Below the pieces are notes generated by a model. That model had not been told where the DNA came from and did no database searches. It saw only the letters and a list, made by a program, of their open reading frames with translations. A program made the position numbers and the translations under genes. Of a DNA stretch of 64,000 nucleotides, positions 1,274-15,453 are shown one piece after another. Position 1 is the stretch's first letter, and the number at the start of each line of letters is the position of its first letter. Location of the stretch: contig DASYAE010000209.1 in NCBI GenBank assembly GCA_036501535.1, positions 1 through 64,000 of the forward strand. Reading direction: 5' to 3'. Source of the DNA: Actinocrinis sp. (GTDB taxonomy: Bacteria; Actinomycetota; Actinomycetes; Streptomycetales; Catenulisporaceae).

Positions 1274-2107
1274 GTGTGCGAACCGCTTCCAACTGCCGGG
1301 AGCCATGACAAAACGATGAAAACCGTAGACAACGGCATGACACCGGGCGGCGGAGGCGGCGGCGGGTGGAAGCCGTCCGGCTCGATGATCCGGAACCGCG
1401 GTGAGTCCAGGGGTCCCTATGCCGGGACCGCGGCCGGGGCGCCCCCACCCGTCTCGCCCGGCGGACGCGTCCCCTCGGTGCCGCGGGAGCGCAAGCCCGC
1501 GATGGCCGCGCTCGGCCTGCTGCTCGTGGTGGTCGGCGTGCTGGCGTCGGTTTATCTGCAACAGAGCTCACAGCACCGGGTCGGCGTGGTCGAGATCAGC
1601 CATACCGTGGCCGCCGGACAGCCCATCACCGGCTCCGACATCAGCGAGGCCATGGTCGCCATCGACCCGAACATCGTCTATGTGACCTGGGCTCAGCGCG
1701 CCGACCTGTTCGCCCACTTCAGCGCCGCCACCACGCTGGTGCCCGGAACGCTGCTGGTGGCCAACATGGTCACGAGCGCTTCGCCGATCCCGGGCGGCGA
1801 CGAGATAGCCGGCGTCAACCTCAAGGACGGCAACTACCCGGACGGCATCCAGGCCGGTGACACGGTGTCCGGCTACTACGTCTCGAACAAGAACGGCGAC
1901 ACGACCGGGACCCAGTACATGGGCGACGGATTCACCTCGCCGCCGATGTTCTCCAAAGTCGAGGTCTATTCGGTCGGCCAACTGGGAACCTCCGGATCAG
2001 TGGACGTTTCGCTGGTCCTGCCGCAGTCGCTGGTGGCCGCCGCGGTTCAAGCGGCCTCAGGAGGGAACCTCGTACTCGTGTTCGACAAGCACACCCCCGG
2101 CTCATAA
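1274..2107 (+). CDS. cpaB: Flp pilus assembly protein CpaB/RcpC-like (SAF-domain protein)
   Basis: Arg-rich N-terminus, one TM helix (MAALGLLLVVVGVLASVYL), then a SAF-like segment (VVEISHTVAAGQPITGSDISEAMVAID). It is the first gene of the tad operon. The start is ambiguous: in-frame Met codons occur at 1274, 1316, 1337, 1385 and 1502. Confidence 0.7.
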   Translation: MCEPLPTAGSHDKTMKTVDNGMTPGGGGGGGWKPSGSMIRNRGESRGPYAGTAAGAPPPVSPGGRVPSVPRERKPAMAALGLLLVVVGVLASVYLQQSSQHRVGVVEISHTVAAGQPITGSDISEAMVAIDPNIVYVTWAQRADLFAHFSAATTLVPGTLLVANMVTSASPIPGGDEIAGVNLKDGNYPDGIQAGDTVSGYYVSNKNGDTTGTQYMGDGFTSPPMFSKVEVYSVGQLGTSGSVDVSLVLPQSLVAAAVQAASGGNLVLVFDKHTPGS

Positions 2108-2333
2108 TGCTGACGAGACCGATTAACCCGGCGGATTCAGCGGAACGGAGACCATAGCGGTACATCCCCACCCGCCGTGCCCCAGCGTCGCAGTACCCTG
2201 AGCAAGGCGGGCCGCGCCGCCGCGGCGCGGCGCACGGCGCGCAGCCCGGGGCGACCCGGACGGCGAGGGGCCCGACGCCCCGAACGGACGGAACGGAAGC
2301 ACCGCACCGCACAAGGGGGCAGGGAGCCGGATC

Positions 2334-3914
2334 ATGGCGCTGATCATCGTGGCCGGAGACAAAGGGTCTCCGGGCGTCACCACCGCGGCGGTGGCCCTCG
2401 CCGCGGCGTGGCCGCGCCACGCGATCCTCGCCGAGTGCGACCCGCACGGCGGCGACCTGGTCTACCGTCTCGCCGCGGAGCAGGGCGGCCCGCTGGATCC
2501 GAACACCGGCCTGCTGTCCGTCGCCATCGCCGCCCGGCGCGGCTTCGACGCGCGCGCCATCCCGCAGCACCTGCAGCGCGTGCACGGCGGCCTCGACGTC
2601 CTGGTCGGCCTCGGCACCGCGGAGCAGGCCGCCGCGGTCACCGGGCAGTGGTCCCGGCTGGCCCGCGCCTTCGACCAGTTCGCCGCGCTGCCCGAGGGCG
2701 GCGACGTGATCGCGGACTGCGGCCGGGTCGGCCCCTCGTCCCCGGCGCTGGAGCTGATGCCGCACGCCGCGCTGGTACTGCTGATCGCGCGCGCCGACGC
2801 CGAACAGGTGGCGCACGTGCGGGACCGCGCCAACGGCCTTTCCCAGGCGCTGCACGGCAACCAGGGCGCGACCGCCTCGATCGCCCGGCCGCCGATCGGC
2901 GTCGTGCTCATCGCGAAGCACCGCGAGGCGAAGAAGGTCGCGCACCAGGTCGGCGACCTGCTGTCGGCGACGGCTGGGGGAGCCGAGGTGCTCGGCGTGC
3001 TCGCGGAGGATCCGGAGGGCGCCGCAGCGCTCTGCGGCAGGGTGCACGCGCGGGTGGACAAGTCGCTGCTGATGCGCTCCGCCCGCGATCTGGCGAATTC
3101 GGTGACGGCGCGATACGCGCTGCTCCGGCAGCAGCCGCCGGCTGCGGCTGCGCACACTGCGCCTCCGCGCAGCTCTGCTCCCGGGGCCGGTCCGGCGGCG
3201 TCGGCCGCGGCCGCACAGTCTTATCAGTACCCTTCGGCGCATGCGGCGGCATCGTCTGGCGCGCCGCCGCCTTCCGCGGCCGAGACCACGGCGCCGATGC
3301 CGCCTATCCGTGACGCCTATGCCCCGCCGGTCGCACCGATATATAGCGCGCCGCAGCCGTGGTCGGCCGACCAGCAGTCGTATCAGTACTCACAGCGGCC
3401 GCAGTACGGACAGCAGTCGGCGCAGCCGCAGCATCAGTCGCGATACCCCCAGTACCCGCAGAGCGCGGCGAATTATTACCAGGACCAGGCTCAGCCTCAG
3501 GGGCAGTCCCAGGCGCAGAATCATGCGGCGCATCAGCCGCCGACCGCTGCGCAGACCCCGGCTACCGTCACGCTGACGCCCAAGCTGCAGCCGCAGCAGC
3601 CCCAGCAGCCTCACCAGCCCCAGTCCCAGCCGGAGCCGGCAGACGGGTGGCCGATCCGAGACGCCGTACCCACCACCGCCTCGGCCGCGGCCTCACCTGC
3701 CTCCCCACCTGCCCCCCAGCCCCAGCTGAACCTCGAGCCCGAGCCTGCGCCCGCAGCACACACACCCGAGCCCGCGATCTCCGCCGAAGACCCCGCCGAG
3801 CCCTCCGCGGCGCCCGCGGCCCCCGACCGATCCTCGACCCCTGACTCCGACGTCGCGGACCTCGCCGACGCCGCGCCGGTCTCCACCGGGTCCGGCGGGA
3901 CGGTGCAGCCCTGA
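2334..3914 (+). CDS. tadZ: TadZ/CpaE-like ParA/MinD-fold pilus localisation protein with a long Gln/Tyr/Pro-rich disordered C-terminal tail
   Basis: N-terminus MALIIVAGDKGSPGVTTAAVALAAA is a degenerate deviant Walker A (KGSPGVTT lacks the second Lys), typical of TadZ. It sits between cpaB and tadA. The last ~250 aa are low complexity with QSYQY/QPQ repeats. The stop overlaps the tadA start by 1 nt. Confidence 0.7.
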   Translation: MALIIVAGDKGSPGVTTAAVALAAAWPRHAILAECDPHGGDLVYRLAAEQGGPLDPNTGLLSVAIAARRGFDARAIPQHLQRVHGGLDVLVGLGTAEQAAAVTGQWSRLARAFDQFAALPEGGDVIADCGRVGPSSPALELMPHAALVLLIARADAEQVAHVRDRANGLSQALHGNQGATASIARPPIGVVLIAKHREAKKVAHQVGDLLSATAGGAEVLGVLAEDPEGAAALCGRVHARVDKSLLMRSARDLANSVTARYALLRQQPPAAAAHTAPPRSSAPGAGPAASAAAAQSYQYPSAHAAASSGAPPPSAAETTAPMPPIRDAYAPPVAPIYSAPQPWSADQQSYQYSQRPQYGQQSAQPQHQSRYPQYPQSAANYYQDQAQPQGQSQAQNHAAHQPPTAAQTPATVTLTPKLQPQQPQQPHQPQSQPEPADGWPIRDAVPTTASAAASPASPPAPQPQLNLEPEPAPAAHTPEPAISAEDPAEPSAAPAAPDRSSTPDSDVADLADAAPVSTGSGGTVQP

Positions 3915-5212
3915 TGGACCACGCTCTCGTCAAGCAACTGCGGCAGGAGGTCGGCGACCGGATCGCCGAACAGCGCCGGATCGACCAACTCTCCGGCATG
4001 CTGCCGATGAACCCGGAGGACGAGCGGCAGTTCGGCCGCGCCGTCATCGGCCAGGTGCTCGAGGAGCACGCGCGCAGCGAGGTCACCGCCGGCCGCATGC
4101 CGCCGAACGCGGCCGAGGAGGAGGCGCTCGCCGCCGGGGTGCACGCCGCGCTGTTCGGGGTCGGCCGGCTCCAGCCGCTGCTGGACGACCCCAACATCGA
4201 GAACATCGACGTCAACGGCTGCGACCGGGTCTTCATCTCGTACGCCGACGGGCGCGAGGTGATGAGCGAGCCGGTGGCCGAGTCGGACGCCGAGCTGATC
4301 GAGCTGGTCCAGATCCTCGGCGCCTACTCGGGCCTGTCCTCCCGCCCGTTCGACTCGGCCAACCCGCAGCTCGACCTGCGCCTGCCGGACGGCTCGCGGC
4401 TCTCCGCGGTGATGGACGTGACCCGCCGCCCGGCCATCTCGATCCGGCGCGCCCGACTCGGCAAGGTGTTCGTCAGCGACCTGGTCGGCAACGGCACGCT
4501 GGTGCCCGAGGTGGCCTCCTGCCTGTCCGCGATGGTCGGCGCGCGCAAGAACGTGATGCTCGCCGGGTCCACCAACGCCGGCAAGACGACGCTGCTGCGC
4601 GCGCTGGCCAACGAGATCCAGCCGAACGAGCGCCTGGTCACCGTGGAGCGGGCGCTGGAGCTCGGCCTGGACCAGTTCCCCGAGCTGCACCCGAACTCGG
4701 TCGCGCTCGAGGAGCGGTTGCCCAACTCCGAGGGCGTCGGCGCGATCAGCATGGCCGAGCTGGTGCGCCGCTCGCTGCGGATGAACCCGTCCCGGGTGAT
4801 CGTCGGCGAGGTGCTCGGCGACGAGATCGTCACCATGCTCAACGCGATGTCGCAGGGCAACGACGGCTCGCTGTCCACGATCCACGCGAACTCCTCGCTC
4901 GAGGTGTTCAACCGGATCTCCACCTACGCGCTGCAGGCGAACGAACGGCTCCCGGTCGAGGCCTCGCACATGCTCATCGCCGGCGCGATCGACTTCGTGG
5001 TCTTCATCGAGAAGCGCAACGATTACAGCCGCGGCGGCACCCTGCGCCGCTTCGTCTCCTCCGTGCGCGAGGTCAACGGCGTCGACGGCCGGGTGCTGTC
5101 CTCCGAGGTGTTCGCGCCGGGGCTGGACGGCCGGGCGGTGGCCCACTCGCCGATCGCCTGCCTCGACGAGCTCGTCGCGCACGGCTATGTACCCAGCGGA
5201 TTGTGGCGGTGA
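3914..5212 (+). CDS. tadA: TadA/CpaF type II/IV secretion ATPase for the Flp pilus
   Basis: Walker A GSTNAGKTT, plus the conserved secretion-ATPase segments RVIVGEV and NDGSLSTIHANS. 432 aa. Confidence 0.9.
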   Translation: MDHALVKQLRQEVGDRIAEQRRIDQLSGMLPMNPEDERQFGRAVIGQVLEEHARSEVTAGRMPPNAAEEEALAAGVHAALFGVGRLQPLLDDPNIENIDVNGCDRVFISYADGREVMSEPVAESDAELIELVQILGAYSGLSSRPFDSANPQLDLRLPDGSRLSAVMDVTRRPAISIRRARLGKVFVSDLVGNGTLVPEVASCLSAMVGARKNVMLAGSTNAGKTTLLRALANEIQPNERLVTVERALELGLDQFPELHPNSVALEERLPNSEGVGAISMAELVRRSLRMNPSRVIVGEVLGDEIVTMLNAMSQGNDGSLSTIHANSSLEVFNRISTYALQANERLPVEASHMLIAGAIDFVVFIEKRNDYSRGGTLRRFVSSVREVNGVDGRVLSSEVFAPGLDGRAVAHSPIACLDELVAHGYVPSGLWR

Positions 5213-6199
5213 GTGGAATTGCCGGCTGATGCGTACCTGACGCAGAACACCGCCGCGGCCATCCTGGTCGGCGCGATGGTCGGCGGTGGCCTCGTGCTCA
5301 CGGTCGCGGCCCTGATCGGCTGGCGCGCGAAGCCGAAGAGCCCGAACCGCGCCACCGCCGTCATCCTGCGCCGCCTCGGCCGGCGCGGGATCATCGCCCT
5401 GCTGATGGGCGTGGTCGTCGGCGTGGCCAGCGGATGGGTGGTGCTCGGCCTCGGCGCGGTCGCGCTGATCATGTTCTGGGACGAGCTGTTCGGCGGCGCG
5501 GGCAGCGAGCGGCTCGCGGTGCGCCGGGTCGAGGCGCTGGCCCTGTGGACCGAGTCGCTGCGGGACACCATCGCCGGCGCGGTCGGCCTCGAGCAGGCGA
5601 TCCCGGCCTCGGCCCGCGGCGCCGACCCGGTGCTGCGCGTCCACCTCAACGCCCTGCTCGACCGGCTGCGCGGCCGGATGCCGATGCCCGAGGCGCTGCA
5701 GATGCTGGCCGACGACCTCGACGACGCCGCGGCCGACCTGGTCATCGCGGCCCTGATCCTCAACTCCAAGCTGCGCGGGCCGGGCCTGCGCGACGTGCTC
5801 AGCGCGCTGGCCGCCTCGGCCCGCGAGGAGGTCGAGGTGCGCCAGCGGGTCATCGCCAGCCGGGCCGGGACCCGCCGCTCGGTGCAGATCATCGTCGCCG
5901 TCGTGGTCGTCTTCATGCTCGGCATGGCGCTGTTCAACAGCAGCTTCGTGGCCCCGTACAGCACCTTCCTGGGCGAGGTCGTGCTGGTCATCGTGATCGG
6001 GCTGTTCGCGATCGGCTTCTTCTGGCTGCGCCGGCTGGCCAAGGTGGAGACCCCGGCCCGGTTCCTGGTCGGCTCCGGGACGGCGGCCGGATCGCGGTCC
6101 GCGGCGGACCAGGCCGCCGCGCGCGCCGCCCATCCCGGCGCGACCGAGCTGATGGCGCCGGCCGGCTCGCCGCCCTACACCCGTCGCGGAGGACGCTGA
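5213..6199 (+). CDS. tadB: TadB (type II secretion F-domain inner-membrane platform protein)
   Basis: GTG start immediately after the tadA stop. Several TM helices and a T2SSF-like central segment. The operon position fits tadB. Confidence 0.75.
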   Translation: MELPADAYLTQNTAAAILVGAMVGGGLVLTVAALIGWRAKPKSPNRATAVILRRLGRRGIIALLMGVVVGVASGWVVLGLGAVALIMFWDELFGGAGSERLAVRRVEALALWTESLRDTIAGAVGLEQAIPASARGADPVLRVHLNALLDRLRGRMPMPEALQMLADDLDDAAADLVIAALILNSKLRGPGLRDVLSALAASAREEVEVRQRVIASRAGTRRSVQIIVAVVVVFMLGMALFNSSFVAPYSTFLGEVVLVIVIGLFAIGFFWLRRLAKVETPARFLVGSGTAAGSRSAADQAAARAAHPGATELMAPAGSPPYTRRGGR

Positions 6200-7098
6200 T
6201 GCTCACCGAGATCTTCCTGGGCGTGTGCGTGGGCTTCGGCCTGTTCGTGATCGCCCGGGCCCTGATACCGGACCGGATGGGCGCGGCCGCCCGGGTCGCC
6301 CAGATCGACGCGTTGCGCGAGCTCGGCCGGTTCGGCGCGCCGGCCCCGGAGGACGCCGGCGGCATGCGGGACCGGCTCGGCCGGCGGCTGGCCGAGATGT
6401 TCGCCCGGTACGGCTGGGAGATGCGCAGCGTGCGCGCCGACCTGTACGTGCTGCAGCGCTCCTGGCAGCGGCTGCTGGTGACCAAGTTCGGGCTGGCCGT
6501 CACCGGGTTCCTGATCGGCCCGCTGCTGTTCGCCGCCGCGCTCGAGGTCGGCATCCGCGTCAACCCGTTCATTCCGCTGTGGGTCGCGCTCGCCCTGGCC
6601 GCGGTGTTCTTCATGCTGCCCGACCTGGAGGTGCGCCGGGACGCCGACGCGAAGCGGCTGGACCTGCGCCGGATCATCGCCGCCTATCTCGACCTGGTCG
6701 CGATGAACCTGGCCGGCGGCCGCGGCCTGCCCGAGGCGCTGACCGCCGCGGCCGAGATCAGCGAGGGCGACGGCCTCGGCCGGATCCGGGACTGCCTGGC
6801 CGAGGCCCGGCTCTCCGGCACCCAGCAGTGGGCCGCCCTCGGCCGGCTAGGCTCCGACCTCGGCATCAAGGAACTGACGGATCTGGGCACCGCACTGGCG
6901 CTGGTCGCGGACGACGGCGCCAAGGTGCGCGCCTCGCTGTCCGCCCGCGCGGAGACCATGCGCAAGCGGGAGCTGGCCGACCTGGAGGGCAAGGCCGGCG
7001 CGCGCTCGCAGTCCATGCTGGTGGCCCAGATGTTCCTGTGCCTGGGCTTCATGGTCTTCATCCTCTTCCCGGCCGTCATGCGCCTGGCGGAGCTGTGA
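6199..7098 (+). CDS. tadC: TadC (type II secretion F-domain inner-membrane platform protein)
   Basis: The ATG overlaps the tadB stop (TGATG). N-terminal TM helix MLTEIFLGVCVGFGLFVIA and C-terminal TM helices. The track ORF 5434..7098 is an out-of-frame upstream extension and is not the real gene. Confidence 0.75.
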   Translation: MLTEIFLGVCVGFGLFVIARALIPDRMGAAARVAQIDALRELGRFGAPAPEDAGGMRDRLGRRLAEMFARYGWEMRSVRADLYVLQRSWQRLLVTKFGLAVTGFLIGPLLFAAALEVGIRVNPFIPLWVALALAAVFFMLPDLEVRRDADAKRLDLRRIIAAYLDLVAMNLAGGRGLPEALTAAAEISEGDGLGRIRDCLAEARLSGTQQWAALGRLGSDLGIKELTDLGTALALVADDGAKVRASLSARAETMRKRELADLEGKAGARSQSMLVAQMFLCLGFMVFILFPAVMRLAEL

Positions 7099-7209
7099 CG
7101 GCCGCGGCCGCGACCGGCCTGGGGCCGCCGGTCCCGGCGAGCGGGGCCGACACCATGGACGACGCGGACGACGACGCTGCGAATTACATCAAAGGAGGTA
7201 CAACCGAAC

Positions 7210-7446
7210 ATGAGAGCCTTGATGAACGGGCTTCGCGCCCGATCGGACCGGGTGCGGTCCGGAGACCGGAGGCAGCGCGGCGCATCGGCGGTCGAGTGGG
7301 TGGTGATCTCCTTCATCCTCGTCATGATCGTCACCGCGGTCGGCGTCATCCTCTACAAGGCGCTGGACACGACCGCCACGAACACCGCGAACTGCATCCA
7401 GAACGCGAACCCGAGCGGCTCCGGCTGCTCCACCGGCGGAGGCTGA
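7210..7446 (+). CDS. flp: Flp family prepilin
   Basis: 78 aa. A basic leader ends in RQRG followed by ASAVEW, a class-III signal-peptide G/XXXXE[YFW] motif. A hydrophobic helix (VVISFILVMIVTAVGVILY) follows, then a short Cys-containing tail. Confidence 0.7.
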   Translation: MRALMNGLRARSDRVRSGDRRQRGASAVEWVVISFILVMIVTAVGVILYKALDTTATNTANCIQNANPSGSGCSTGGG

Positions 7447-7901
7447 CCGCACCGCACGGCTCCGATCGCCGCGGCGCCCGCGCGCGGGGCGACCGGCTCG
7501 AGCGCCAGCGCGGCGTCTCGGCGATCGAGTTCGTGCTGCTCACCCCGATCCTGTTCGTGCTGATCTTCAGCACGGTGCAGTTCGCGCTGTACTTCTTCGC
7601 CCGGCACGTCGTGCAGACGGCGACCCAGGAGGCGCTCAACACCGCGCGCGACGAGGCGGCGGCGCCCGGCGTGGACTGGCGGGGCGACACGCAGGCCACC
7701 GGGCTGCGCTGGATCCAGAACCTCGCGCCGAGCCTGGTGACGTCCCCGACGGTGGATCCCCCGGTGCTGTCCTCGCAGGACGGTGTCGAGACGGTCCAGG
7801 TGACGATCACGGCGAAGGTCCCGTCGTGGCTCGGCACGATCACGGTGACCCAGACGGCGACCGGACCGGTCGAGCAGTTCTACTCGGACACAGGCGATTG
7901 A
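7443..7901 (+). CDS. tadE: TadE-like pseudopilin (start codon uncertain)
   Basis: The frame reads ...RGDRLERQRG VSAIEFVLLTPILFVLIFSTVQFALYFF..., a G/xSAIEF processing motif plus a hydrophobic segment. I found no in-frame ATG, GTG or TTG between the flp stop and the motif. The 5' coordinate is a placeholder (CTG at 7443). Confidence 0.5.
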   Translation: MTAPHGSDRRGARARGDRLERQRGVSAIEFVLLTPILFVLIFSTVQFALYFFARHVVQTATQEALNTARDEAAAPGVDWRGDTQATGLRWIQNLAPSLVTSPTVDPPVLSSQDGVETVQVTITAKVPSWLGTITVTQTATGPVEQFYSDTGD

Positions 7902-7923
7902 GGGGATGAGGGGAGGAACGACG

Positions 7924-8403
7924 ATGAAGCACCCGGCGGCCGGTGGTCATGCGTCACCCTCGACGCTGCGCCGCAGGCTGCTGCTTGTACCTCGTGCATC
8001 AGATAAGCGGCAGAGCGGCATGTCTACGATCGAGGTCGTCCTCTGGACGCCTATCATCGTCGGCTTCTTCATGCTGATCGTCGCGTTCGGATTCCTCGTC
8101 AACTCCTATGGGGACATCCAGAACGCGGCCAGCGACGCCGCGCGGGCCGGCTCGCTCCAGCGCGACCCCGTCTCCGCGCAGAACGCCGCGCTGGCCGCCG
8201 CGCAGGCCGATCTGCCGACGCAGTGCGTCGGCGGGCCGGCCGTCTCGCCGGACGAGAACGCATTCGCCGCCGGCAACCTCTACACGATTCAGCTGACCTG
8301 CACGGTCAGCCTCGGCGGCCTCGACTGGTTCCAGATCGGCGACAAGACGTTCACCGTCACCGCATCGGCTCCGCTCGACGCGTTCCGGAGGTCGACGCCA
8401 TGA
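7924..8403 (+). CDS. tadE: TadE/TadF-like pseudopilin
   Basis: Leader ...DKRQSG followed by MSTIEVVLWTPIIVGFFMLIVAFGFLV. The ATG at 7924 has a GGGGAGGAA ribosome-binding site about 7 nt upstream; ATG 7906 is an alternative start. Confidence 0.7.
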   Translation: MKHPAAGGHASPSTLRRRLLLVPRASDKRQSGMSTIEVVLWTPIIVGFFMLIVAFGFLVNSYGDIQNAASDAARAGSLQRDPVSAQNAALAAAQADLPTQCVGGPAVSPDENAFAAGNLYTIQLTCTVSLGGLDWFQIGDKTFTVTASAPLDAFRRSTP

Positions 8404-8957
8404 GCGCGGCAGGCAGCGCGAGGCGCCTTTGGAGCGGCTGCATTGCAGCGCTCGGGCAAAGGCTGCGCGCCCCGGCGCGGCGCGGCCGCGAGCGCGGCAC
8501 CTTCTCCATCGCCGTCGTCATCTGGGTGCTGATGACCGTCGTGCTCGGCGCCTTCGTGGTGGACGGCGGCCTGTCGATCAGCGAGCGGGAGCGGGCCGGC
8601 GACCTCGCCCAGCAGGCCGCCCGCGCGGTCGCGAACTTCCTCGACACGAACGACCTGCGCACCGGCACGATCGTGATCGACTTCAACGCCGACGGCAGCT
8701 GCAACCAGGACGAGCAGCACACGGTGCTCCAGCTGCTGGAGGCCGACGGCCTCCAGGACACCGACCTGCTCTACTGCGGCCGGAATCCGGCCGACAACGG
8801 CGAGACCACGACGATGGACAACGGGGTCCCCGTGCAGGTCCCGGACATCATGGTCACGATCAACGTTCCGTACTCGCCGCTGTTCACCGGCATGTTCTAC
8901 AAGGGAAAAGTCTCTGTAACCGCATCAGCCACCGCCTATCCCGAGCCCGGGATCTAA
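8400..8957 (+). CDS. tadG: TadG-like pilus assembly protein (TadE/G N-terminal domain)
   Basis: The ATG overlaps the preceding stop (ATGA). N-terminus ...RERG TFSIAVVIWVLMTVVLGAFVVDGGLSIS matches the TadE/G-like N-terminal module. 185 aa. Confidence 0.7.
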   Translation: MSAAGSARRLWSGCIAALGQRLRAPARRGRERGTFSIAVVIWVLMTVVLGAFVVDGGLSISERERAGDLAQQAARAVANFLDTNDLRTGTIVIDFNADGSCNQDEQHTVLQLLEADGLQDTDLLYCGRNPADNGETTTMDNGVPVQVPDIMVTINVPYSPLFTGMFYKGKVSVTASATAYPEPGI

Positions 8958-8979: not shown

Positions 8980-11900
8980 ATGACCAACACCCTGAAATCC
9001 CCGCCGCGCGGCGGCGGACCCGAGCGGGGCCGCCCGGGAACGCGGCCGGACCCGTGGACTCCGCAGCCGATCCGGATCAAGCACCGCCGCACCACGCGGG
9101 ACGTGATGCGCGGCCTCGGCGCGTTCGCGGCCCTGGCGGTGATCATCGTCGGCATCCCGCTGGCGCTGGTGCGCTACATCGGCTGGCCGCTGCCGCACCA
9201 CTGGCCGAACTCCGGCATGTTCGACCAGCCGATCACCACGCAGGTCGTGCTCAACGCGCTGGCCGTGATCGTCTGGCTGGCCTGGGCCCAGTTCGCCGCC
9301 TGCGTCGTGGTCGAGCTGGTGGCGGCGATCCGCGGGGTCGGCATGCCGGCGAAGGTGCCCGCGGCCGGGCCGAGCCAGTTCCTGGCCCGACAGCTGATCG
9401 CCGCGCTGCTGATGATCACTGCGTCGGCGGCGTCGTTCGTGCCCAGCCTCTCGCGGCTCGGCGCACAGACGACCCCGACGCTTCCGCACGCCGGCGGCCC
9501 ACCTTCGGTGACAGCGCCCTATACACCGGGCTCTGCCTTACCGACCTCTCCCGCAGGCACATCGTCGGGCATTTCTTCATCCGCCTCACCGAGCTCCTCG
9601 GCAGCTTCGTCGCTGCCTGCGGTGCGGTACTCGTCGTCCCCGACCGTCTCCGCGACCGGTTCGACGACGGGTTTTTACACCAGCTCGCCGACCGTCATCC
9701 CGCCGCCCAACAGCACGCTGGTGTCGCCGCCCGGCGGTGACGCGACGAAGGTCTACACCGTCGAGGCGCCCGAGGGCCTGCACCACGACACGCTGTGGGG
9801 CATCGCGGAGCGCTACCTCGGCGACGGCCGCCGCTACCCGGAGATCTTCGACCTCAACAAGGACCGGGTGCAGCCGGACGGGTCGATGCTCACCAACGCC
9901 TCGCTCATCCGGCCGGGCTGGATCCTGGTGCTGCCGGCCGACGCCAGCGGCCCCGGCCTGATCACCGAGCTGTCCCCGGCGCCGTCCACACCGCCCGCCC
10001 CGCCACCCGCCACGTCGACGCAGCCCCCGGGCGCTTCCACGCCGCCGCCGTCGAATTCGCCCAGCCCGCTGCCGTCGGCGTCCCAGCAGCCTCCGTCCCC
10101 GAGTGCATCTGCGCATCCGTCACCGTCGTCCTCGCCAACGCACAAGCCGACAGCTGCGCCTAGTGCGAGCGCATCGGCTACACACACGCCGTCAGCCCCT
10201 GCGTCTCACACGGCCTCAGCTGTCGCCTCGTCAGCTCAGCCCAGCAGTCAGGCGCCCATGATCGCGGCGCCCGCGGTCGCTGGCTCGGTCTCGACACCCA
10301 CGCCGTCTCCGAGCACGGGATCCACAGATCCGTCGACGCCCTCCGCACCGCCGACGCAGCCGCCGAGCAGCAGCCCGTCCGCGCCCACACAACCGTCGCC
10401 GACCGGCCTTACGCCGGTGCCGACCGTCTCAGTGCCGCCTATCAGCACTCCGCCGCCTACCGCTCCGCCTTCCGCCACAAGCCCAACCGGTGATCCCTCG
10501 GGCGCGACCCCCTCCGCGTCGCCCACGACGCAGCCGGCGATCGCCCTCGGGGCCGGGAACTCCCCGCTCGCGCTGCCGCCCGGCCCGTCCAGCCCGCCCG
10601 CCCCGGCGAGCTCCGGCTCGCACCGCGGATCCCACGCACCGGAGGAGAGCCAGCCGCCTTCGGCGGACAACCGGCTGCTCTACGGCCTCGCCGGCGCCCC
10701 CCTGCTCGCCGCGGGACTGCTCAAGGCACTGGGCCGACAGCGGCGGCGGCAGCTTTGGTACCGCGCCTTCGGATCGCGGCCGGTAACCGCCTCGGGCGAC
10801 GGCGCCGTCGCCGAGGAGTCGATCCGCATCGGCGCCGGCGAGGACGAGGTCTGGTTCCTCGACCTGGCCCTGCGCGGCCTGGCCGCCGCGCTCGCCGCCG
10901 AGGAGCGCTCCGCGCCCGACGCGATCGGCCTGCGGCTGAGCGACGGGGGCGTCGAACTCCTGCTGGCCCACCGCGCCGACCCGGACGACCCGGACGACCC
11001 CTCAGGCGCGCCGCCGGGGCCGTGGCGGCTCTCGAAGGACGGCCGCGCCTGGTTCTTCCCGCGCCCGCGGATCCGCGACACCGACCCGGAGGCCGCTCGG
11101 CGCAGGTTCTCGCCCTACCCGGGCATGGTCAGCATCGGCGTCGCCGAGCCGGGCTCGGACGGCGCTCCCGGCCAGGACCGGATCATGGTCGACCTCGAAG
11201 AGGCGCGCGGCATCGTCGCCGTCGAGGGCCCGGACGACCTGCGCCGCGCCTTCGTCGCGGCGCTCGCCGTGGAGCTGGCCACCAACTCCTGGTCGGACCG
11301 GATGACGGTCACCCTGGTCGGCTTCCCCGGCGACCTGACGCCGCTGGCCCCGGCCCGGATCAAGCACGTCGCGACGCTCGACGAGGTCCTGCCCGCGGTC
11401 GAGGCCGAGGCCGCCGCCCGCAGCGCCGCGCTGAACGCCGCCGGGCTCGGCTCCGTGCTCGAGGGCCGCTGCCGGGCGAGCCACGCCAGCTCGTTCCCGC
11501 CGCACTTCGTCCTGGTCGCCGAGGAGCCGCATCCGGCGATCCTCGCGCGACTCACCGAGACGGTGGTCACGGCCAAGCGCGTCGGCATGGGCTTCGTCGT
11601 CGCAGGCGCGGCCGTGGCGGCTGCGCTTAGCGCGGCACGTGGCATAGGGCTGGCGCTGGCGCGCAGTAGGAACGTCGAAGCCGCCGAGCCTGATGCTGAG
11701 GACGGCGAAGGTGAGGGCATGAAGAGCAGTGCGTCGGCGCGGGCGTCGGCCGCACGGGGCGGGGCCTCCTCTGCCGGCGCGCCGACCTGGCATCTCGTTC
11801 TCGATGACACAGGACGCGTGACCGTGCCCACGCTCGGGCTCACCGCGGAGGCGCAGGTCCTGCCGGCCGATCAGTATCGTGCTGTCATCGCCCTTTTCCG

Positions 11901-12987
11901 ATCGGTGTGTGAGACCGAGGGCACGCGTATCGAGCCTCCGCGTATCCACTCGTCGCAGCCTGCGATAGCCAGCCATCCGTACAAGGCGGGTCCGCCCACG
12001 CTGCGCAACGGAGCACCGCCCGCCTCACTGCTGCCGCCGAACGCCCCTGCGGCCACGAGTCCCGCCGCCGCGTCCGCGCTCTCCCCGGTCCGATCGCCGC
12101 TTGCGCCTAACGCCCCGTCATTGGCCGGCGCGGCTGCGTCGTCATCGTCCTCGTCGGGCTTCTCCTCAGCCGCAGCCGAGTCCGTCGGCTATTCCGGACC
12201 GCTGCCTGACGACCCGCCAGCCGTGTACGTAACGCTCCTCGGCGCATTAGGCGTCAACGGTGCGCGGCCGATCGCCCCGGACCGCGAGCTGCTGCTTCGT
12301 GAAGCGCTCGTCTTCCTGCTCAACCACCGCGACGGCGTGCACCCGCGGGTCCTGGCCGCCGCGCTGTGGCCGCGCGGCGCAAGCGCGGACGTCGCCGAGG
12401 CCACGTTCGCCCGTCTGGCCGCCTGGCTCGGCACCGACGCGGACGGCCGCGCCAACCTCGAGGCCGACGTGGACGGCCGGCTCTGCCTGGGCCGCCACGT
12501 GTGGTCCGACTGGGACCGCTTCCAGGCGCTCGTGTCCCGCGCGCTGTACGACGGCTCGATCGCGAGCGAGCGCGACCGCGCGGAGCTGCTGGCCACCGCG
12601 CTCGGGCTGGTGCGCGGGCCGTTCCTGGACGACCGGGAGCCGGGGCACTACGCCTGGCTCGCCTACGAGACCGCGGAATCGCAGATCCCGGCGTTCATCG
12701 CGGACACGGCGCTGCGCCTGGCCGACGCGATGGTGGCGATCGGCGACGCAGAGGCCGCCATCGCCTCGATCAAGGCCGGCATGCTCGGCAGCCCGGACGA
12801 CGAGGAGCTGTGGCGCGGCCTTCTGCGCGCCACCGCGGCCACCGGCGACGTCGAGCGCCTGACCGGCGCGATCGAGGGCCTGTGCAAGCGCACCTGGTAC
12901 GTCCACGGTGTGGAAGGGCTCAACCCGCGCACCGAGTCGCTGGTCGACGAGCTGCTGCCGAGCTGGCGCGACCTCGTCTCGGTCTGA
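8980..12987 (+). CDS. large membrane-anchored LysM- and BTAD-domain protein
   Basis: 1335 aa with a GAGGAAAG ribosome-binding site upstream. Two predicted TM helices (aa ~45-70 and ~90-120). A LysM-like segment (YTVEAPEGLHHDTLWGIAERYLGDGRRYPEIFDLNKDRV...GWILVLP, nt ~9750-9925). A Pro/Ser/Thr/Ala linker of about 330 aa (nt ~9930-10930). An unassigned central region. The C-terminal ~260 aa resemble the bacterial transcriptional activator domain of SARP/AfsR regulators, with no recognisable wHTH DNA-binding domain. Confidence 0.75.
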   Translation: MTNTLKSPPRGGGPERGRPGTRPDPWTPQPIRIKHRRTTRDVMRGLGAFAALAVIIVGIPLALVRYIGWPLPHHWPNSGMFDQPITTQVVLNALAVIVWLAWAQFAACVVVELVAAIRGVGMPAKVPAAGPSQFLARQLIAALLMITASAASFVPSLSRLGAQTTPTLPHAGGPPSVTAPYTPGSALPTSPAGTSSGISSSASPSSSAASSLPAVRYSSSPTVSATGSTTGFYTSSPTVIPPPNSTLVSPPGGDATKVYTVEAPEGLHHDTLWGIAERYLGDGRRYPEIFDLNKDRVQPDGSMLTNASLIRPGWILVLPADASGPGLITELSPAPSTPPAPPPATSTQPPGASTPPPSNSPSPLPSASQQPPSPSASAHPSPSSSPTHKPTAAPSASASATHTPSAPASHTASAVASSAQPSSQAPMIAAPAVAGSVSTPTPSPSTGSTDPSTPSAPPTQPPSSSPSAPTQPSPTGLTPVPTVSVPPISTPPPTAPPSATSPTGDPSGATPSASPTTQPAIALGAGNSPLALPPGPSSPPAPASSGSHRGSHAPEESQPPSADNRLLYGLAGAPLLAAGLLKALGRQRRRQLWYRAFGSRPVTASGDGAVAEESIRIGAGEDEVWFLDLALRGLAAALAAEERSAPDAIGLRLSDGGVELLLAHRADPDDPDDPSGAPPGPWRLSKDGRAWFFPRPRIRDTDPEAARRRFSPYPGMVSIGVAEPGSDGAPGQDRIMVDLEEARGIVAVEGPDDLRRAFVAALAVELATNSWSDRMTVTLVGFPGDLTPLAPARIKHVATLDEVLPAVEAEAAARSAALNAAGLGSVLEGRCRASHASSFPPHFVLVAEEPHPAILARLTETVVTAKRVGMGFVVAGAAVAAALSAARGIGLALARSRNVEAAEPDAEDGEGEGMKSSASARASAARGGASSAGAPTWHLVLDDTGRVTVPTLGLTAEAQVLPADQYRAVIALFRSVCETEGTRIEPPRIHSSQPAIASHPYKAGPPTLRNGAPPASLLPPNAPAATSPAAASALSPVRSPLAPNAPSLAGAAASSSSSSGFSSAAAESVGYSGPLPDDPPAVYVTLLGALGVNGARPIAPDRELLLREALVFLLNHRDGVHPRVLAAALWPRGASADVAEATFARLAAWLGTDADGRANLEADVDGRLCLGRHVWSDWDRFQALVSRALYDGSIASERDRAELLATALGLVRGPFLDDREPGHYAWLAYETAESQIPAFIADTALRLADAMVAIGDAEAAIASIKAGMLGSPDDEELWRGLLRATAATGDVERLTGAIEGLCKRTWYVHGVEGLNPRTESLVDELLPSWRDLVSV

Positions 12988-13125
12988 TCCGCGACCGCGA
13001 AGCAGCGTCCGCTCGCATGCACCGATAAAGCGAGCGGACGGGGTAATCGTCGGCACACGGGGTACCCGGTGTCCGCGAGGTATGGAGACAGGACTGGTAA
13101 CCGGTCTTCGATTAGGGTGCGTTGA

Positions 13126-13989
13126 GTGAACGGCTTCACAGCGGTGGTTACGGATTCGACGGCCTGCCTATCGCCCTCCAGGGCGGCAGCCGCCGGGATC
13201 ACCGTCGTGCCGCTGCAGGTCGTGGTGGCCACCGAGTCGTTCCCCGAGGGCACGGCGCAGGCTCGGACGGCTCTGATGGAGGCGCTGCGCAAGCGCCAGC
13301 CGGCCACCACCTCCCGGCCCGGGCCGGAGCAGTTCGCGGACTGCTATCGGCGGCTCGCCGAGGCCGGGGCGGCCGGCATCGTCTCGGTCCACCTGTCCGG
13401 AGACCTCTCCGCGACCTACGAATCGGCCCTGCTCGCCGCGGCCGGCGCGCCGGTCCCGGTCGAGGTCGTCGACTCCCGGTCGGTCGCGATGGGCCTCGGC
13501 TTCGCCGCGCTCGCGGCCGCCGACGCCGCCCGACAGGGCGAGACCGCGGCGGTCTGCGCCGTCGCGGCGGCCAAACGAGCGACGATGACGTCTGCCTTCT
13601 TCTATGTCGACACGCTCGAATACCTCCGCCGGGGTGGCCGCATCGGTTCGGCGAGAGCCGTGCTCGGCTCGGCCCTCGCGGTGAAGCCGCTACTGCATTT
13701 GGTGGATGGTCAGGTCGAGCTCCTGGAGAAGGCCCGTACCGCGCAGCGTGGTATCGCCCGACTCGAGCAGGTCGTCCTGGAGCGCGCAGGACAGGACGCC
13801 GTGGACATAGCGGTCCACCACCTCGCCTCGCTCCCGCGGGCCGAACTCCTCGCCGAGCGCCTGCGCTCCCAGCTGCCGAGCGCCGCCTCGGCCGACGGGG
13901 AGCTGACGGTCTCCGAAGTCGGCGCAGTCATCGGCGCCCACGTCGGCCCCGGCGTCCTCGGCGTCGTCATCGCGCCTCGGCTGCCGTAG
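13126..13989 (+). CDS. DegV family fatty-acid-binding protein
   Basis: N-terminus AVVTDSTACLSP and overall DegV-like length and pattern (about 287 aa). The start is GTG at 13126 or GTG at 13144. Confidence 0.75.
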   Translation: MNGFTAVVTDSTACLSPSRAAAAGITVVPLQVVVATESFPEGTAQARTALMEALRKRQPATTSRPGPEQFADCYRRLAEAGAAGIVSVHLSGDLSATYESALLAAAGAPVPVEVVDSRSVAMGLGFAALAAADAARQGETAAVCAVAAAKRATMTSAFFYVDTLEYLRRGGRIGSARAVLGSALAVKPLLHLVDGQVELLEKARTAQRGIARLEQVVLERAGQDAVDIAVHHLASLPRAELLAERLRSQLPSAASADGELTVSEVGAVIGAHVGPGVLGVVIAPRLP

Positions 13990-14151
13990 ATCCGTCGCAT
14001 CGCCTGGCGCGCCGCCGCGCGTTCGTCACTCCCGCCCGCGATCTTCGCTTCCGCTGCTTCGCGCCCTCTCGCGATCGAGTTATCCACAGGGCTTTTCCAC
14101 AGATTTCAGAAAACATCTGACATCTCCGGCAGCATTGCTTACCGTCGATGT

Positions 14152-15453
14152 GTGGTCACATTTCGTGATCGAAACCATCGAGGGAGTCTGATGTCAGTAT
14201 ACGATCAAGAAGTCAGCAATGATCGATCCCTGTTAAACAATATCGATCGTACGTTGACTGTCTCTCGCGACGGCAACGAACACTACTCTTCACCGCCGCC
14301 AGAAAATGACCACGAACAGCACGCTCGTGACGAGCCTGTTGATGGCAATGAAGAAGAGCATGAGTCATCTGACGAGGATATCCATAGCCATTCACGTGAC
14401 AGAAAAACGAGCGGGCGCGGCCACGATGGACCGGACTACCCGAGCGCTCTCTGGGGTCGAGTCCCGCCCGAGTCCCGTGCGTTCAAAGCCGCGGCGCGCA
14501 CCGGATATCGACCTGGCGACGATTGGCGCGATCTGCCCCGAGATCCACGGATCGGTCCCCATCCACGCCCAACCCGCCCGCGCGAAGATCATCCACTCGC
14601 CCTGATGCGCGAGCGGGCGGGCCACTGGCTCGATGATCATCTGCCGGCCACGCTACAGGGGCGCTGGCGGCTTGATCGGCGCACCGGCATCATCCTCGCC
14701 ACCGCGCTGACAGCCGTAGCCGTGCTGTTCGGCGGCTGGGAGCTGTTCCGCGACCGCACCGAACAAGTCACCGGGACGCGACTGATCAGCACGGGACAGC
14801 ACGGCCGCCACGACGACGACACCAGCGGCAGCAGCAGCGGCAGTAGTAGCACGCATAGTCATCACAGCCACTTCGATGATGGCGAATCCGGCATGAATCA
14901 GGATGATCCAATGACTATGCCGAACGCCTCCGAAGATGCATCAGGCGGCGCCGATTCAGCCGACAGCGCTGACGGATCGGGGTCCGGCCACGCTCTCGGC
15001 GCCGGGCGGCCGCCGATCATCGTCGATGTCGAAGGCAAGGTCGCCAGACCCGGCGTGCAGCGCCTGCCGGCCGGATCCCGGGTCCAGGACGCGGTGCGCG
15101 CCGCCGGCGGAGCGCTGGCCGGGGCCGACCTGGCGCCGCTGAACCAGGCCCGCGTCCTGAACGACGGCGAGCAGGTCGTCGTCGGCGCCCCGCAGGATCC
15201 GGCCGCGGCCGCCTCGCCGACCGGACCCCACGCCAAGGCGCGTGGCAAGCAGCAGGTCTCCGAGCCCGTGCACTTGAACTCGGCCACCGTCGACCAGCTC
15301 GAACAGCTGCCCGGGGTCGGCCCGGCGATGGCGCAGCGCATCCTCGACTGGCGTACCGAGCACGGCGGCTTCGCGACCGTCGAGCAGCTACGCGAAGTGC
15401 GCGGGCTCGGCGGCCAGCGATTCGCCGCCCTGAGCCGGTGGATCCAGCTGTGA
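14152..15453 (+). CDS. comEA: competence protein ComEA (SLBB + helix-hairpin-helix DNA-binding)
   Basis: C-terminus LNSATVDQLEQLPGVGPAMAQRILDWRTEHGGFATVEQLREVRGLGGQRFAAL is a tandem HhH ComEA motif. An upstream SLBB-like segment (IIVDVEGKVARPGVQRLPAGSRVQDAVRAAGG) and one TM helix. The first ~90 codons lie in an unusually AT-rich patch, so the true start may be later (for example Met at ~14596). Confidence 0.8.
   Translation: MVTFRDRNHRGSLMSVYDQEVSNDRSLLNNIDRTLTVSRDGNEHYSSPPPENDHEQHARDEPVDGNEEEHESSDEDIHSHSRDRKTSGRGHDGPDYPSALWGRVPPESRAFKAAARTGYRPGDDWRDLPRDPRIGPHPRPTRPREDHPLALMRERAGHWLDDHLPATLQGRWRLDRRTGIILATALTAVAVLFGGWELFRDRTEQVTGTRLISTGQHGRHDDDTSGSSSGSSSTHSHHSHFDDGESGMNQDDPMTMPNASEDASGGADSADSADGSGSGHALGAGRPPIIVDVEGKVARPGVQRLPAGSRVQDAVRAAGGALAGADLAPLNQARVLNDGEQVVVGAPQDPAAAASPTGPHAKARGKQQVSEPVHLNSATVDQLEQLPGVGPAMAQRILDWRTEHGGFATVEQLREVRGLGGQRFAALSRWIQL

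Follow-up and report, generated by a model that had tools for sequence, protein, structure and literature searches.

A predicted four-pass membrane protein with a divergent SARP module, encoded by the final gene of an actinobacterial tad operon, may be a wall-anchored hub of Tad pili

What is a protein labelled in the databases as a BTAD "putative transcriptional regulator" doing at the end of a pilus operon? In the window (the whole stretch of Actinocrinis sp. DNA analyzed, 64,000 nucleotides) the final gene of a tad operon (8980..12987; all features described here are on the + strand) was seen from its ORF and translation to encode a 1335-aa polytopic membrane protein of this kind. The protein family is present in hundreds of genomes, we found no functional study of it in the literature, and it may be an unrecognised component or regulator of Gram-positive Tad pili. 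The gene itself is real: the ORF is single and uninterrupted, an AGGAAAG ribosome-binding site lies just 5' of the ATG, GC3 reaches 0.88 over the gene as a whole and 0.90-1.00 within its folded parts, as compared to 0.74-0.75 in overlapping antisense ORFs, and a homology search gave 86 homologues with E down to 0. The first-pass annotation had considered that an undetected frameshift might split two genes here, a possibility that fails since in 76 of the 77 related loci the N- and C-terminal halves are encoded together in a single ORF.

The rest of the operon lies upstream (1274..8957; Pfam T2SSE, T2SSF, TadE and Tad). It comprises tadA (3914-5212; NCBIfam TadA-family ATPase), tadB (5213-6199), tadC (6199-7098), flp (7210-7446, whose translation shows the leader motif G/ASAVEW), two tadE-like genes (about 7443-7901, and 7906-8403) and a tadG-like gene (8400-8957), and starts with two weakly assigned ORFs, one possibly CpaB/RcpC-like (1274-2107; only SAF, E 0.063) and one TadZ-like (2334-3914; only BcsQ, E 0.0015). 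The tadG-like ORF passes Pfam PF13400 'Tad' at 30.3 against a cutoff of 22.3, which agrees with the earlier placement of our gene right after tadG. The operon also adjoins degV-comEA-comEC in the window.

Membership of the tad locus, suggested earlier from position, was confirmed across the 80 best related loci, which come from Catenulisporales, Streptomyces/Actinacidiphila and Actinomadura-type genera. The upstream gene order recurs there and matches that of the window, with same-strand genes for TadG-like (71 loci), TadE (70), TadC (67), TadB (64), TadA (62) and Flp (60) proteins. In 35 of the 80 the next gene, within ~60 nt, encodes a Peptidase_A24 prepilin peptidase, and these include all 7 Streptomyces loci whose 10-kb flank does not reach the upstream tad genes. 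Every informative locus among the best 80 had either upstream tad genes or the downstream peptidase gene, in three orders, and distant homologues (~27-31% identity) are also the terminal gene of tad loci, one of which lies on a contig that resembles a mobile element. The orthologue is set apart from tadG in many Streptomyces by a variable island of 1 to >10 kb, and therefore translational coupling with the pseudopilin genes does not occur there. Some actinobacteria have functional Tad pili although their clusters are without such a gene, as in the competence clusters of M. luteus (PMC4322843), and the protein is therefore an accessory of one Tad subtype rather than a core component.

Membrane topology was deduced from Kyte-Doolittle hydropathy and charge counts rather than with a dedicated topology predictor. 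The membrane anchor described earlier was borne out, as four hydrophobic segments rather than the smaller number first seen. The N-terminus (aa 1-44), with 11 Lys/Arg, is predicted to be cytoplasmic and precedes a membrane module (9115..9450) of TM1 (aa 46-64), TM2 (~aa 88-116) and TM3 (aa 136-157). TM2 carries the conserved motif WLAWAQF[TA]AC...E; in 23 diverse homologues W99, W102, A103, E112 and Q133 are invariant and Q104, F105 and C108 nearly so. Judged from conservation, invariant polar and aromatic residues such as W99, W102 and E112 appear to be more than a simple tether needs. The helix that had been overlooked, TM4 (aa 566-584, hydropathy peak 1.65), is followed by GRQRRRQ and a ~40-aa stalk (aa 585-625; 10675..10854 for the whole), and its region has the conserved motif LLAAGLL..LGR(R/Q)RR with an invariant R588. 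TM4 and the RQRRRQ after it are predicted to place everything downstream on the cytoplasmic side, and the BTAD domain therefore does not end an extracellular or wall-spanning chain.

Between TM3 and TM4 the predicted extracellular loop is held by the membrane at both ends, with a YgaU-type LysM domain (aa 257-322; 9748..9945) in its middle. Pfam LysM scores only 11.5-15 bits, below the 20.9 cutoff, but NCBIfam PRK11198 matches aa 268-320 (E 2.7e-5), the family profile matches the solved LysM protein 9g8s_T (E 1.3e-4), and Pfam LysM is detected at E<=1 in 17 of 30 relatives. It is also the best-conserved N-terminal block, with many invariant columns, and the LysM call can be kept although its Pfam match is sub-threshold. 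The single ~330-aa Pro/Ser/Thr linker reported earlier is rich in these residues as stated, but is in fact two linkers that flank LysM: linker 1 (aa 158-256; 9451..9747; S 24%, P 17%, T 15%), whose length differs among homologues, and linker 2 (aa 323-563; 9946..10668; P 24%, S 20%, A 15%, T 10%).

The central region, which had been said to match nothing, gave no sequence-level match in Pfam or PDB; its structure model (pLDDT 83.7), in contrast, has an FtsK/EccC/TcpA-type P-loop fold, found by two methods (aa 626-992; 10855..11955). A ~55-aa low-complexity insertion, roughly aa 900-953 and flanked by a hydrophobic stretch (aa 868-886), is specific to the window. Walker A is present in 0 of 322 family copies and no Walker B acid is conserved; the domain is a RecA-like fold that has lost its nucleotide-binding motifs, and motor activity is therefore not expected from the sequence. 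A third, predicted cytoplasmic flexible linker comes next (aa 993-1079, ~87 aa; 11956..12216; A 24%, S 20%, P 19%), in keeping with low pLDDT at the end of the model; at this point most homologues have a short segment only, and the linker of the window protein is far longer. The protein could in principle serve a Tad-like apparatus for secretion or killing, as its substrate receptor or coupling protein, and the EccC-like domain would then recognise T7SS-signal toxins. The best structural matches include EccC D2/D3 and DUF domains, a few Streptomyces islands encode a 1521-aa RHS toxin (L022:2724-7289) whose N-terminus is T7SS_signal/WXG100-like, and contact killing by a Tad-like apparatus is reported for Myxococcus (PMC8460266). 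However, a full-length RHS gene occurs in only ~5 of the 80 loci, in either orientation inside the hypervariable island, and is missing from the window and most loci, and the central domain lacks nucleotide-binding motifs, which makes this reading very improbable.

The core premise of the first-pass annotation was a BTAD domain without a DNA-binding domain, and this proved wrong, as the C-terminus is a full though divergent SARP module. The BTAD (TPR-like) domain itself (aa 1177-1310, together with a conserved C-terminal tail P.TE.L..EL.P; 12508..12984) was called correctly: Pfam BTAD scores 33.9-36.7 bits (33.9 for aa 1177-1290) against a cutoff of 22.1, and is found in 30 of 30 relatives. 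It is preceded by a divergent OmpR/SARP-type winged helix (wHTH, aa 1082-1176; 12223..12507), since the family profile aligns with EmbR (2fez) residues 11-222, wHTH included, at E 1.2e-5. This was further supported by an AlphaFold model of aa 1070-1335 (pLDDT 91), in which the wHTH is built as beta-sheet, alpha1, alpha2, alpha3 and hairpin, and by Foldseek, which aligned the model over ~260 columns with the EmbR and AfsR SARP modules (E 7e-8 to 3e-6, TM 0.62-0.68). Taken together, our results point to a four-pass protein with the LysM loop outside and a dead FtsK/EccC-type domain and divergent SARP module inside.

The holding or guiding of DNA at the pilus base, as a DNA-handling or coupling part of Tad-dependent uptake or transfer, would be one use for such an arrangement. 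The order of anchor, FtsK-like domain and winged helix is reminiscent of FtsK, SpoIIIE and Streptomyces TraB; the central domain has its top structural matches in FtsK, TcpA and EccC; some family members are on plasmids or mobile elements; the window operon has the com genes as neighbours; and M. luteus requires Tad pili for transformation (PMC4322843). The loss of Walker A and B would leave no motor, however, the acidic wHTH is of SARP/OmpR type and not of FtsK-gamma type, comEA/comEC adjoin only 6 of the 80 loci, and the gene is absent from the M. luteus competence clusters (PMC4322843). We regard this function as improbable.

To our knowledge, all SARP modules characterised so far are activators that bind DNA. 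A close rival to the reading we prefer, although somewhat doubtful, is a membrane-tethered one-component activator: the TM helices and/or the LysM loop would respond to the condition of the wall or to how much unassembled Flp pilin the membrane holds, the FtsK-like domain would drive signal-dependent oligomerisation, and the linker-borne module would bind DNA and recruit RNA polymerase to tad/flp or other promoters, or be freed by proteolysis as a ~260-aa small SARP. ToxR and CadC are known examples of wHTH activators bound to the membrane. The complete module superposes on EmbR and AfsR, has the size and domain order of a small SARP, follows a flexible linker and is better conserved than the rest of the protein (58% mean column identity, as compared to 49% for the N-terminal part and 42% for the central domain). 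The invariant polar residues of TM2 would suit a sensor, and there are precedents for intramembrane pilin sensing in PilS-PilR (PMC6058289) and in the Caulobacter Tad pilin that acts on a membrane kinase (PMC7196804); that Tad pili function elsewhere without the gene also fits a regulator (PMC4322843).

The wHTH has nevertheless diverged strongly. Pfam Trans_reg_C is absent at E<=1 from the window protein and 30 of 30 relatives, and it matches 1 of 23 homologues, a distant relative (E 9.4e-6). The recognition helix (helix 3, ~aa 1135-1151, SADVAEATFARLAAWLG) has a net charge of -1, as is the family median, and the whole wHTH has a family median of -2. Among the AfsR helix-3 DNA contacts (Q81, R87, T88, Y89, S91, R92, R94 and K95; PMC11301090) only the R92 equivalent is retained in the window protein (1 of 8, by-eye alignment), and in the profile alignment hydrophobic residues and His, with an invariant Glu after them, take the place of the phosphate-contact motif PKQR found in EmbR helix 1. 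SARP-type direct repeats were not seen in a shallow search of the conserved promoter of the operon and of the region upstream of flp. On the other side, R1139, R1145 and R1147 of helix 3 are kept in most family members, and most Streptomyces orthologues have three arginines in this helix. Concurrently, the activator has no necessary role for a wall-binding LysM on a ~340-aa linker or for a dead FtsK-type domain, and the divergence of the wHTH can be argued to oppose a purely DNA-binding role.

We therefore tentatively favour, with a probability of roughly 0.4, that the protein serves one Gram-positive Tad subtype as a wall-anchored hub or stator; the putative "wall-spanning scaffold or sensor" suggested at first remains a reasonable idea. 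The LysM loop would anchor the complex on peptidoglycan, and the conserved polar membrane helices would touch membrane parts of the machine, with the TadB/TadC platform, the prepilin peptidase and the pilins as candidates. The dead FtsK-like domain may oligomerise beneath the membrane like EccC, VirD4 and TcpA-type domains, as assumed from its fold only, and TadZ or TadA could dock on the ring so formed. The BTAD/wHTH module would act as an adaptor, and might also report machine state to transcription if DNA binding is kept. That the gene keeps its place behind the pseudopilin genes in 71 of the 80 loci speaks for the hub, as do the prepilin peptidase gene next to it in 35, the like position in distant homologues and on a P. 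acnes plasmid (PMC3666418), and the invariant residues of TM2, whereas the high conservation of the SARP module, the helix-3 arginines in Streptomyces and the Streptomyces island count against it.

The functional logic of the hub has parallels in other type IV filament machines. In PilMNOP and ExeA/GspA a cytoplasmic ring or NTPase-fold domain is coupled across the membrane to a wall-binding element; ExeA/GspA of the T2SS combines a cytoplasmic ATPase domain, a TM segment and a periplasmic peptidoglycan-binding domain, ExeA being an active AAA+ ATPase. The folds are unrelated to ours and the components are separate polypeptides, whereas here a single polypeptide would cover the roles of PilMNOP plus FimV or TsaP in diderm type IVa pili. 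FimV/HubP (PMC12918733) combines an external LysM with a membrane segment, long regions of low complexity and a cytoplasmic TPR domain at the C-terminus, and shares these traits and the pilus association with our protein. For FimV/HubP and TsaP this is analogy only, with no sequence or fold relationship seen: FimV belongs to diderm bacteria and has one TM with the N-terminus outside, whereas our protein has four, carries LysM on a loop and has extra FtsK-like and wHTH domains.

Within the FtsK-HerA clade, the likeness is especially to the membrane-proximal degenerate DUF domain of T7SS EccC/EssC. Identity to clade proteins is only 12-15%, the Walker A and conserved Walker B motifs of FtsK/SpoIIIE, EccC/EssC and TcpA/TraB are absent, there is one FtsK-like domain instead of three, and the wHTH is SARP-type, unlike theirs. 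The SARP activators AfsR, EmbR, ActII-ORF4 and DnrI likewise have a wHTH directly followed by BTAD over ~260 aa. Their module is soluble, N-terminal and found in the context of biosynthetic gene clusters, whereas ours is at the C-terminal end of a four-pass membrane protein in a pilus operon, with an acidic recognition helix, most AfsR DNA-contact residues replaced and Trans_reg_C undetectable. A described counterpart may be on a P. acnes plasmid, where a published table gives Pfam 'LysM, BTAD' for a tad-locus gene located behind three TadE genes (PMC3666418). This gene, PAGK_2369 of HL096PA1, resembles ours in its tad-locus position and two detectable domains; it was labelled 'TadB' without analysis, and its probable family membership is judged from domains and position only (PMC3666418).

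The ORF at 8980..12987 (+) lies in DNA of ~73% G+C, and at this composition long ORFs arise by chance on both strands. Two antisense ORFs, at 3611-6133 (-) (840 aa, across tadA/tadB) and 11002-11976 (-) (324 aa, across the focal gene), were rejected as high-GC artefacts on the basis of their codon positions (GC1 0.88-0.94, GC3 ~0.74). The forward ORF is a genuine gene despite the high GC. It translates without a stop into 1335 aa, its GC3 stands at 0.88 for the whole ORF and at 0.90-1.00 for its folded segments, as compared to 0.74-0.75 in the overlapping antisense ORFs, and a ribosome-binding site (AGGAAAG) is found immediately 5' of the ATG. The first-pass annotation had left room for two genes split by an undetected frameshift; this is excluded by the uniform coding GC3 and by the related loci, where the N- and C-terminal parts are within one ORF in 76 of 77.

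Among 5.8 billion proteins searched, 86 homologues of about 950-1340 aa were recovered, and one of these, from a metagenome, is 99.6% identical to the focal protein. The named relatives nearest to it belong to Actinocrinis, Actinospica, Catenulispora, Streptomyces and Actinacidiphila. When the central domain was used in an exhaustive phmmer search, 719 clusters at 50% identity were recovered, nearly all of them proteins of 900-1200 aa with the domain mid-protein; a profile of the central-domain alignment gave 11 hits in the 5.8-billion set, where low-complexity words probably swamped the candidates. At least 566 stretches encoding a relative were found in a scan of one genome per species, and the family extends over at least several hundred species genomes.

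The focal gene is the terminal member of a tad operon in which all genes are on the + strand: a possible CpaB-like gene (1274-2107, SAF only at E 0.063), a TadZ-like gene (2334-3914, weak BcsQ/ParA-type similarity only), tadA (3914-5212), tadB (5213-6199), tadC (6199-7098), flp (7210-7446, leader motif G/ASAVEW), two tadE-like genes (about 7443-7901 and 7906-8403) and a tadG-like gene (8400-8957, Pfam PF13400, 30.3 bits). The only matches of the focal protein were to BTAD, TPR and, weakly, LysM, and none of the known Tad-component models (T2SSE, T2SSF, TadE, Tad, Peptidase_A24, SAF and others) matched it. Since the T2SSE, T2SSF, TadE and Tad models fall on its neighbours instead, the protein is an additional component beside the known Tad parts.

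At the TadZ position the window has a gene for 526 aa, about twice the length of its counterparts elsewhere (about 245-285 aa), with no Pfam hit and a BcsQ/ParA-type NCBIfam match at E 0.0015. For tadA the best NCBIfam model was TIGR03819, 'TadA family conjugal transfer-associated ATPase', also known as the 'helicase/secretion neighbourhood' ATPase. The score of 225 is well under the cutoff of 373, and this suggests that the tad locus of the window is a paralogous subtype, distinct from the DEAH-helicase-adjacent locus of many actinobacteria. Between the flp stop (7446) and the prepilin motif RG/VSAIEF (~7512), the first tadE-like gene offers no ATG, GTG or TTG in frame; the candidate starts are CTG at 7392, 7425 and 7443 only, with GGAGG directly before 7443. 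This suggests either a start codon outside the canonical set or a wrongly placed boundary.

Upstream of the first operon gene (window about 1200-1273) the Catenulisporales share GAGTACTATC(G/A)GC, with TACTAT as the likely -10 and CTGTTC before it. At the same position a promoter-like element was seen in Streptomyces (GCGCCTTGAGGGG..GCTGATACGGTGC) and another in Actinomadura (CACCGAATCCATTGACGTG); the elements are clade-specific and were compared at equivalent positions in the related loci L001, L004 and L018. Because these conserved promoter-like elements lie just upstream, they suggest that the operon begins at the gene at 1274. Directly downstream of the focal gene are degV (13126-13989, Pfam DegV 249 bits), comEA (14152-15453) and comEC (15438-17216); a 332-aa ORF at 13122-14120 is in the wrong frame and was discarded for degV. 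This adjacency of degV, comEA and comEC occurs in six of the best 80 of at least 566 loci, all Actinocrinis/Actinospica-like. Natural transformation in M. luteus requires Tad pili (PMC4322843), and the tad plus degV-comEA-comEC neighbourhood may or may not be functional. No prepilin peptidase gene was found anywhere in the window.

The first-pass annotation had suggested from its position after tadG that the gene belongs to the tad locus, and the comparison across genomes bears this out. Among the best 80 of at least 566 loci the upstream neighbours recur with strand and order preserved, TadG-like in 71, TadE in 70, TadC in 67, TadB in 64, TadA in 62 and Flp in 60, in genera that include Catenulispora/Actinospica/Actinocrinis, Streptomyces/Actinacidiphila, Actinomadura/Spirillospora/Actinocorallia and Mangrovactinospora. 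Distant homologues are placed alike: three metagenomic ones of about 27-31% identity have the position seen in the window, the first being preceded by T2SSE, two T2SSF genes, a small Flp-like ORF, TadE and Tad, on a contig that also carries ParA, a DUF927 protein and a methylase, and the second being followed by Peptidase_A24. A Peptidase_A24 gene ~60 nt past the focal-gene stop was found in 35 of the same best 80 loci, all Streptomyces, and these 35 include all seven loci with tad genes beyond the 10-kb flank. A literature search for functional study of a LysM/BTAD/tad protein yielded only a table entry in a 2013 P. acnes genome paper, where a plasmid tad gene following three TadE genes is given as 'LysM, BTAD' and labelled TadB (PMC3666418). 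The family protein is a marker of one tad subtype rather than a core component of all Tad systems.

The tadG-like gene and the focal-gene orthologue are set apart in many Streptomyces by a hypervariable island of 1 to >10 kb (L022:1601-10001; also L028, L034 and other loci). In ~5 of the best 80 of at least 566 loci the island contains a gene for a 1521-aa RHS-repeat toxin, whose N-terminus is T7SS_signal/WXG100-like, together with a small downstream ORF; RHS fragments or homologues of the N-terminus occur in ~8 more loci in either orientation, and the other recurrent island ORFs mostly had no Pfam match. A role of the family in toxin coupling would draw on this RHS/T7SS-signal gene, but the toxin is present in too few loci to serve as a basis for function, and we regard such a role as a lesser reading with little support.

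The N-terminal half of the protein starts with a basic segment (11 Lys/Arg in residues 1-44), followed in the hydropathy profile by TM1 (46-64), a long TM2 (~88-116) and TM3 (136-157). TM2 carries the family signature WLAWAQF[TA]AC...E, in which W99, W102, A103 and E112 are invariant and Q104, F105 and C108 near-invariant across 23 diverse homologues. Then come a Ser/Pro/Thr linker (aa 158-256), a YgaU-type LysM (aa 257-322) and a second linker rich in Pro/Ser/Ala/Thr (aa 323-563), all predicted to be extracellular, and a fourth hydrophobic helix (aa 566-584), which is conserved family-wide and is followed by GRQRRRQ. This fourth helix was overlooked in the first reading of the sequence, and with it the part after residue 585 is predicted to be cytoplasmic. 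From hydropathy and the positive-inside rule we infer an N-in topology with four TM helices as the sole coherent arrangement, which would place the LysM and the P/S/T linkers outside and everything after 585 in the cytoplasm. The LysM domain proposed earlier was searched with HMMs and is upheld in part. Pfam PF01476 gave the focal protein 11.5-15 bits, below the gathering score of 20.9. Three lines speak for the domain: NCBIfam PRK11198 (YgaU LysM region) matches the focal protein at E 2.7e-5, the family profile matches a solved LysM protein, 9g8s_T, at E 1.3e-4, and PF01476 gives weak hits in relatives (E<=1 in 17 of 30, E<0.01 in 3 of 23).

The central region had earlier been described as matching nothing recognisable, and in terms of sequence this stands: residues 626-992 gave no match in Pfam (including FtsK_SpoIIIE), NCBIfam or PDB sequences, even with a 30-sequence profile, and the PDB-sequence profile search returned nothing below E = 1. 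It is through structure prediction only that the region could be assigned, to a RecA-like core of FtsK-type topology, for which Foldseek retrieved EccC, TcpA and FtsK (E about 2e-5). An active ATPase was considered and rejected. The Walker A motif GxxxxGK[ST] is absent from all 322 family domain copies, where its first glycine (G750) alone is conserved, and the Walker B acid is not conserved (position 848: E 91, A 75, G 25, D 22, V 20, T 15, in ~300 copies). Because the nucleotide-site motifs are gone, the predicted domain is best described as a pseudo-ATPase directly beneath the membrane, like the EccC DUF domain. Inside the FtsK-like domain, a hydrophobic stretch (aa 868-886) precedes a ~55-aa low-complexity insertion of Ala, Ser, Gly and acidic residues (roughly aa 900-953), which no aligned homologue has apart from the window protein and the metagenome twin with 99.6% identity. 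The structure model is unconfident over aa 868-953 (window about 11581-11840; pLDDT about 47-57).

An Ala/Ser/Pro linker (aa 993-1079) leads to the C-terminal module. The first-pass annotation had read this end as a BTAD domain without a DNA-binding domain; the HMM search agrees on the BTAD (PF03704, 33.9 bits against a cutoff of 22.1, present in 30 of 30 relatives), but the second half of the claim is contradicted by three lines of evidence, which place a winged helix N-terminal to the BTAD and complete a SARP module. Residues 1070-1335, searched as a 30-sequence profile, align with residues 11-222 of M. tuberculosis EmbR, covering wHTH and BTAD, at E 1.2e-5. The AlphaFold model (pLDDT 91.2) has a beta-sheet, alpha1, alpha2, alpha3 and a hairpin in the OmpR-type order and then the helical BTAD. 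With this model Foldseek retrieved EmbR and, from two RNA polymerase complexes, the SARP module of AfsR; the matches extend over about 260 columns (TM 0.62-0.68, E 7e-8 to 3e-6). The protein thus has the BTAD and OmpR-type wHTH of SARPs, but without a sequence match to Trans_reg_C (PF00486), which was absent at E<=1 from the window protein and all 30 relatives; a single distant relative (P0086) of 23 matched it.

The occurrence of a complete SARP module raises the possibility of a membrane-tethered activator that senses the pilin pool or the state of the wall and feeds back on transcription. The membrane helices that face the pilin and/or the LysM loop bound to the wall would do the sensing, the dead FtsK-type ring would serve for oligomerisation, and the C-terminal wHTH-BTAD would be the output, activating transcription directly at the membrane. 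With a mean column identity of 58%, vs 42% and 49% for the rest, the SARP module is better conserved than any other part, and focal-type genes are dispensable in other Tad systems, both of which favour this explanation, and pilin sensing has precedents in PilS-PilR and the Caulobacter Tad pilin signal (PMC6058289, PMC7196804). The DNA-binding signature, however, appears degraded. The recognition helix, SADVAEATFARLAAWLG, has a net charge of -1, as does the family median, and the median for the whole wHTH is -2. Helix 3 of AfsR contacts DNA through Q81, R87, T88, Y89, S91, R92, R94 and K95 (PMC11301090), and the window protein retains one of the eight, the R92 equivalent, in a by-eye alignment of RLRKAL with RLAAWL; most Streptomyces orthologues retain three arginines in this helix. 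Opposite the PKQR motif with which EmbR helix 1 starts, the alignment has a His and hydrophobic residues, and an invariant Glu comes next.

A second point against the activator comes from the promoters. In a shallow scan, no SARP-type direct repeats with 11- or 22-nt spacing were conserved upstream of the cpaB-like gene, tadZ, flp or the focal gene; these regions yielded only clade-specific -10/-35-like elements and trivial repeats. Repeats upstream of flp numbered 4.2 vs 1.05 in shuffles, but the mononucleotide control is weak and the excess carries no evidential weight. We regard the activator as a close rival of the hub reading given below, with a somewhat lower probability. If it were true, this would be the first membrane-integral SARP and a Gram-positive, one-component counterpart of PilS-PilR pilin sensing. 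The combination of an FtsK-type domain with a winged helix, and the comEA/comEC neighbourhood, could also speak for a role in DNA handling, which we rank among the lesser readings, with little support.

The reading that we tentatively favour, at a probability of roughly 40%, is that of a hub or stator anchored in the wall. What the analysis shows is the architecture, the absence of the ATPase motifs and the linkage to tad. In such a hub the LysM, carried on a long loop tethered at both ends, would fix the complex to the peptidoglycan, and the conserved polar TM helices would touch those parts of the machine that lie in the membrane. Like its homologues, the dead FtsK-type domain could form a ring or platform close to the membrane, and the TPR-like BTAD with the wHTH could serve as an adaptor.

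It is poorly understood how bacteria without an outer membrane anchor, align and regulate their Tad/Flp pili. To our knowledge such bacteria lack both a secretin and TadD, and in the window there is only a weak suggestion of an RcpC/CpaB-like protein. The family is a concrete candidate here, as its gene has a fixed place after the pseudopilin genes and, in many genomes, ahead of the prepilin peptidase gene, and by its predicted architecture would be physically able to link peptidoglycan, membrane and cytoplasm. For the SARP field, it presents the module outside antibiotic gene clusters and joined to a membrane protein. Public annotation names these proteins 'BTAD domain-containing putative transcriptional regulator' on the BTAD alone, a label that conceals three quarters of the protein. 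The individual domains and the machine are of known kinds; in the literature searched we found neither a protein combining a LysM loop, four TMs, a dead FtsK/EccC domain and a SARP module nor a fixed place for such a protein in a large subclass of actinobacterial tad loci. Taken together, our results identify a genuine, widespread and unstudied component, which could provide a missing envelope-anchoring or feedback element of Gram-positive Tad pili.

The predicted layout of the focal protein resembles that of FimV/HubP, which combine an outer LysM and a membrane segment with a TPR domain on the inner side (PMC12918733). FimV/HubP have a single TM, an acidic cytoplasmic region and a FimV TPR, whereas the focal protein has four TMs and no FimV-type Pfam hit, and we view the likeness as analogy and not as membership. 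The role proposed for the hub would resemble that of PilMNOP with FimV or TsaP in type IVa pili.
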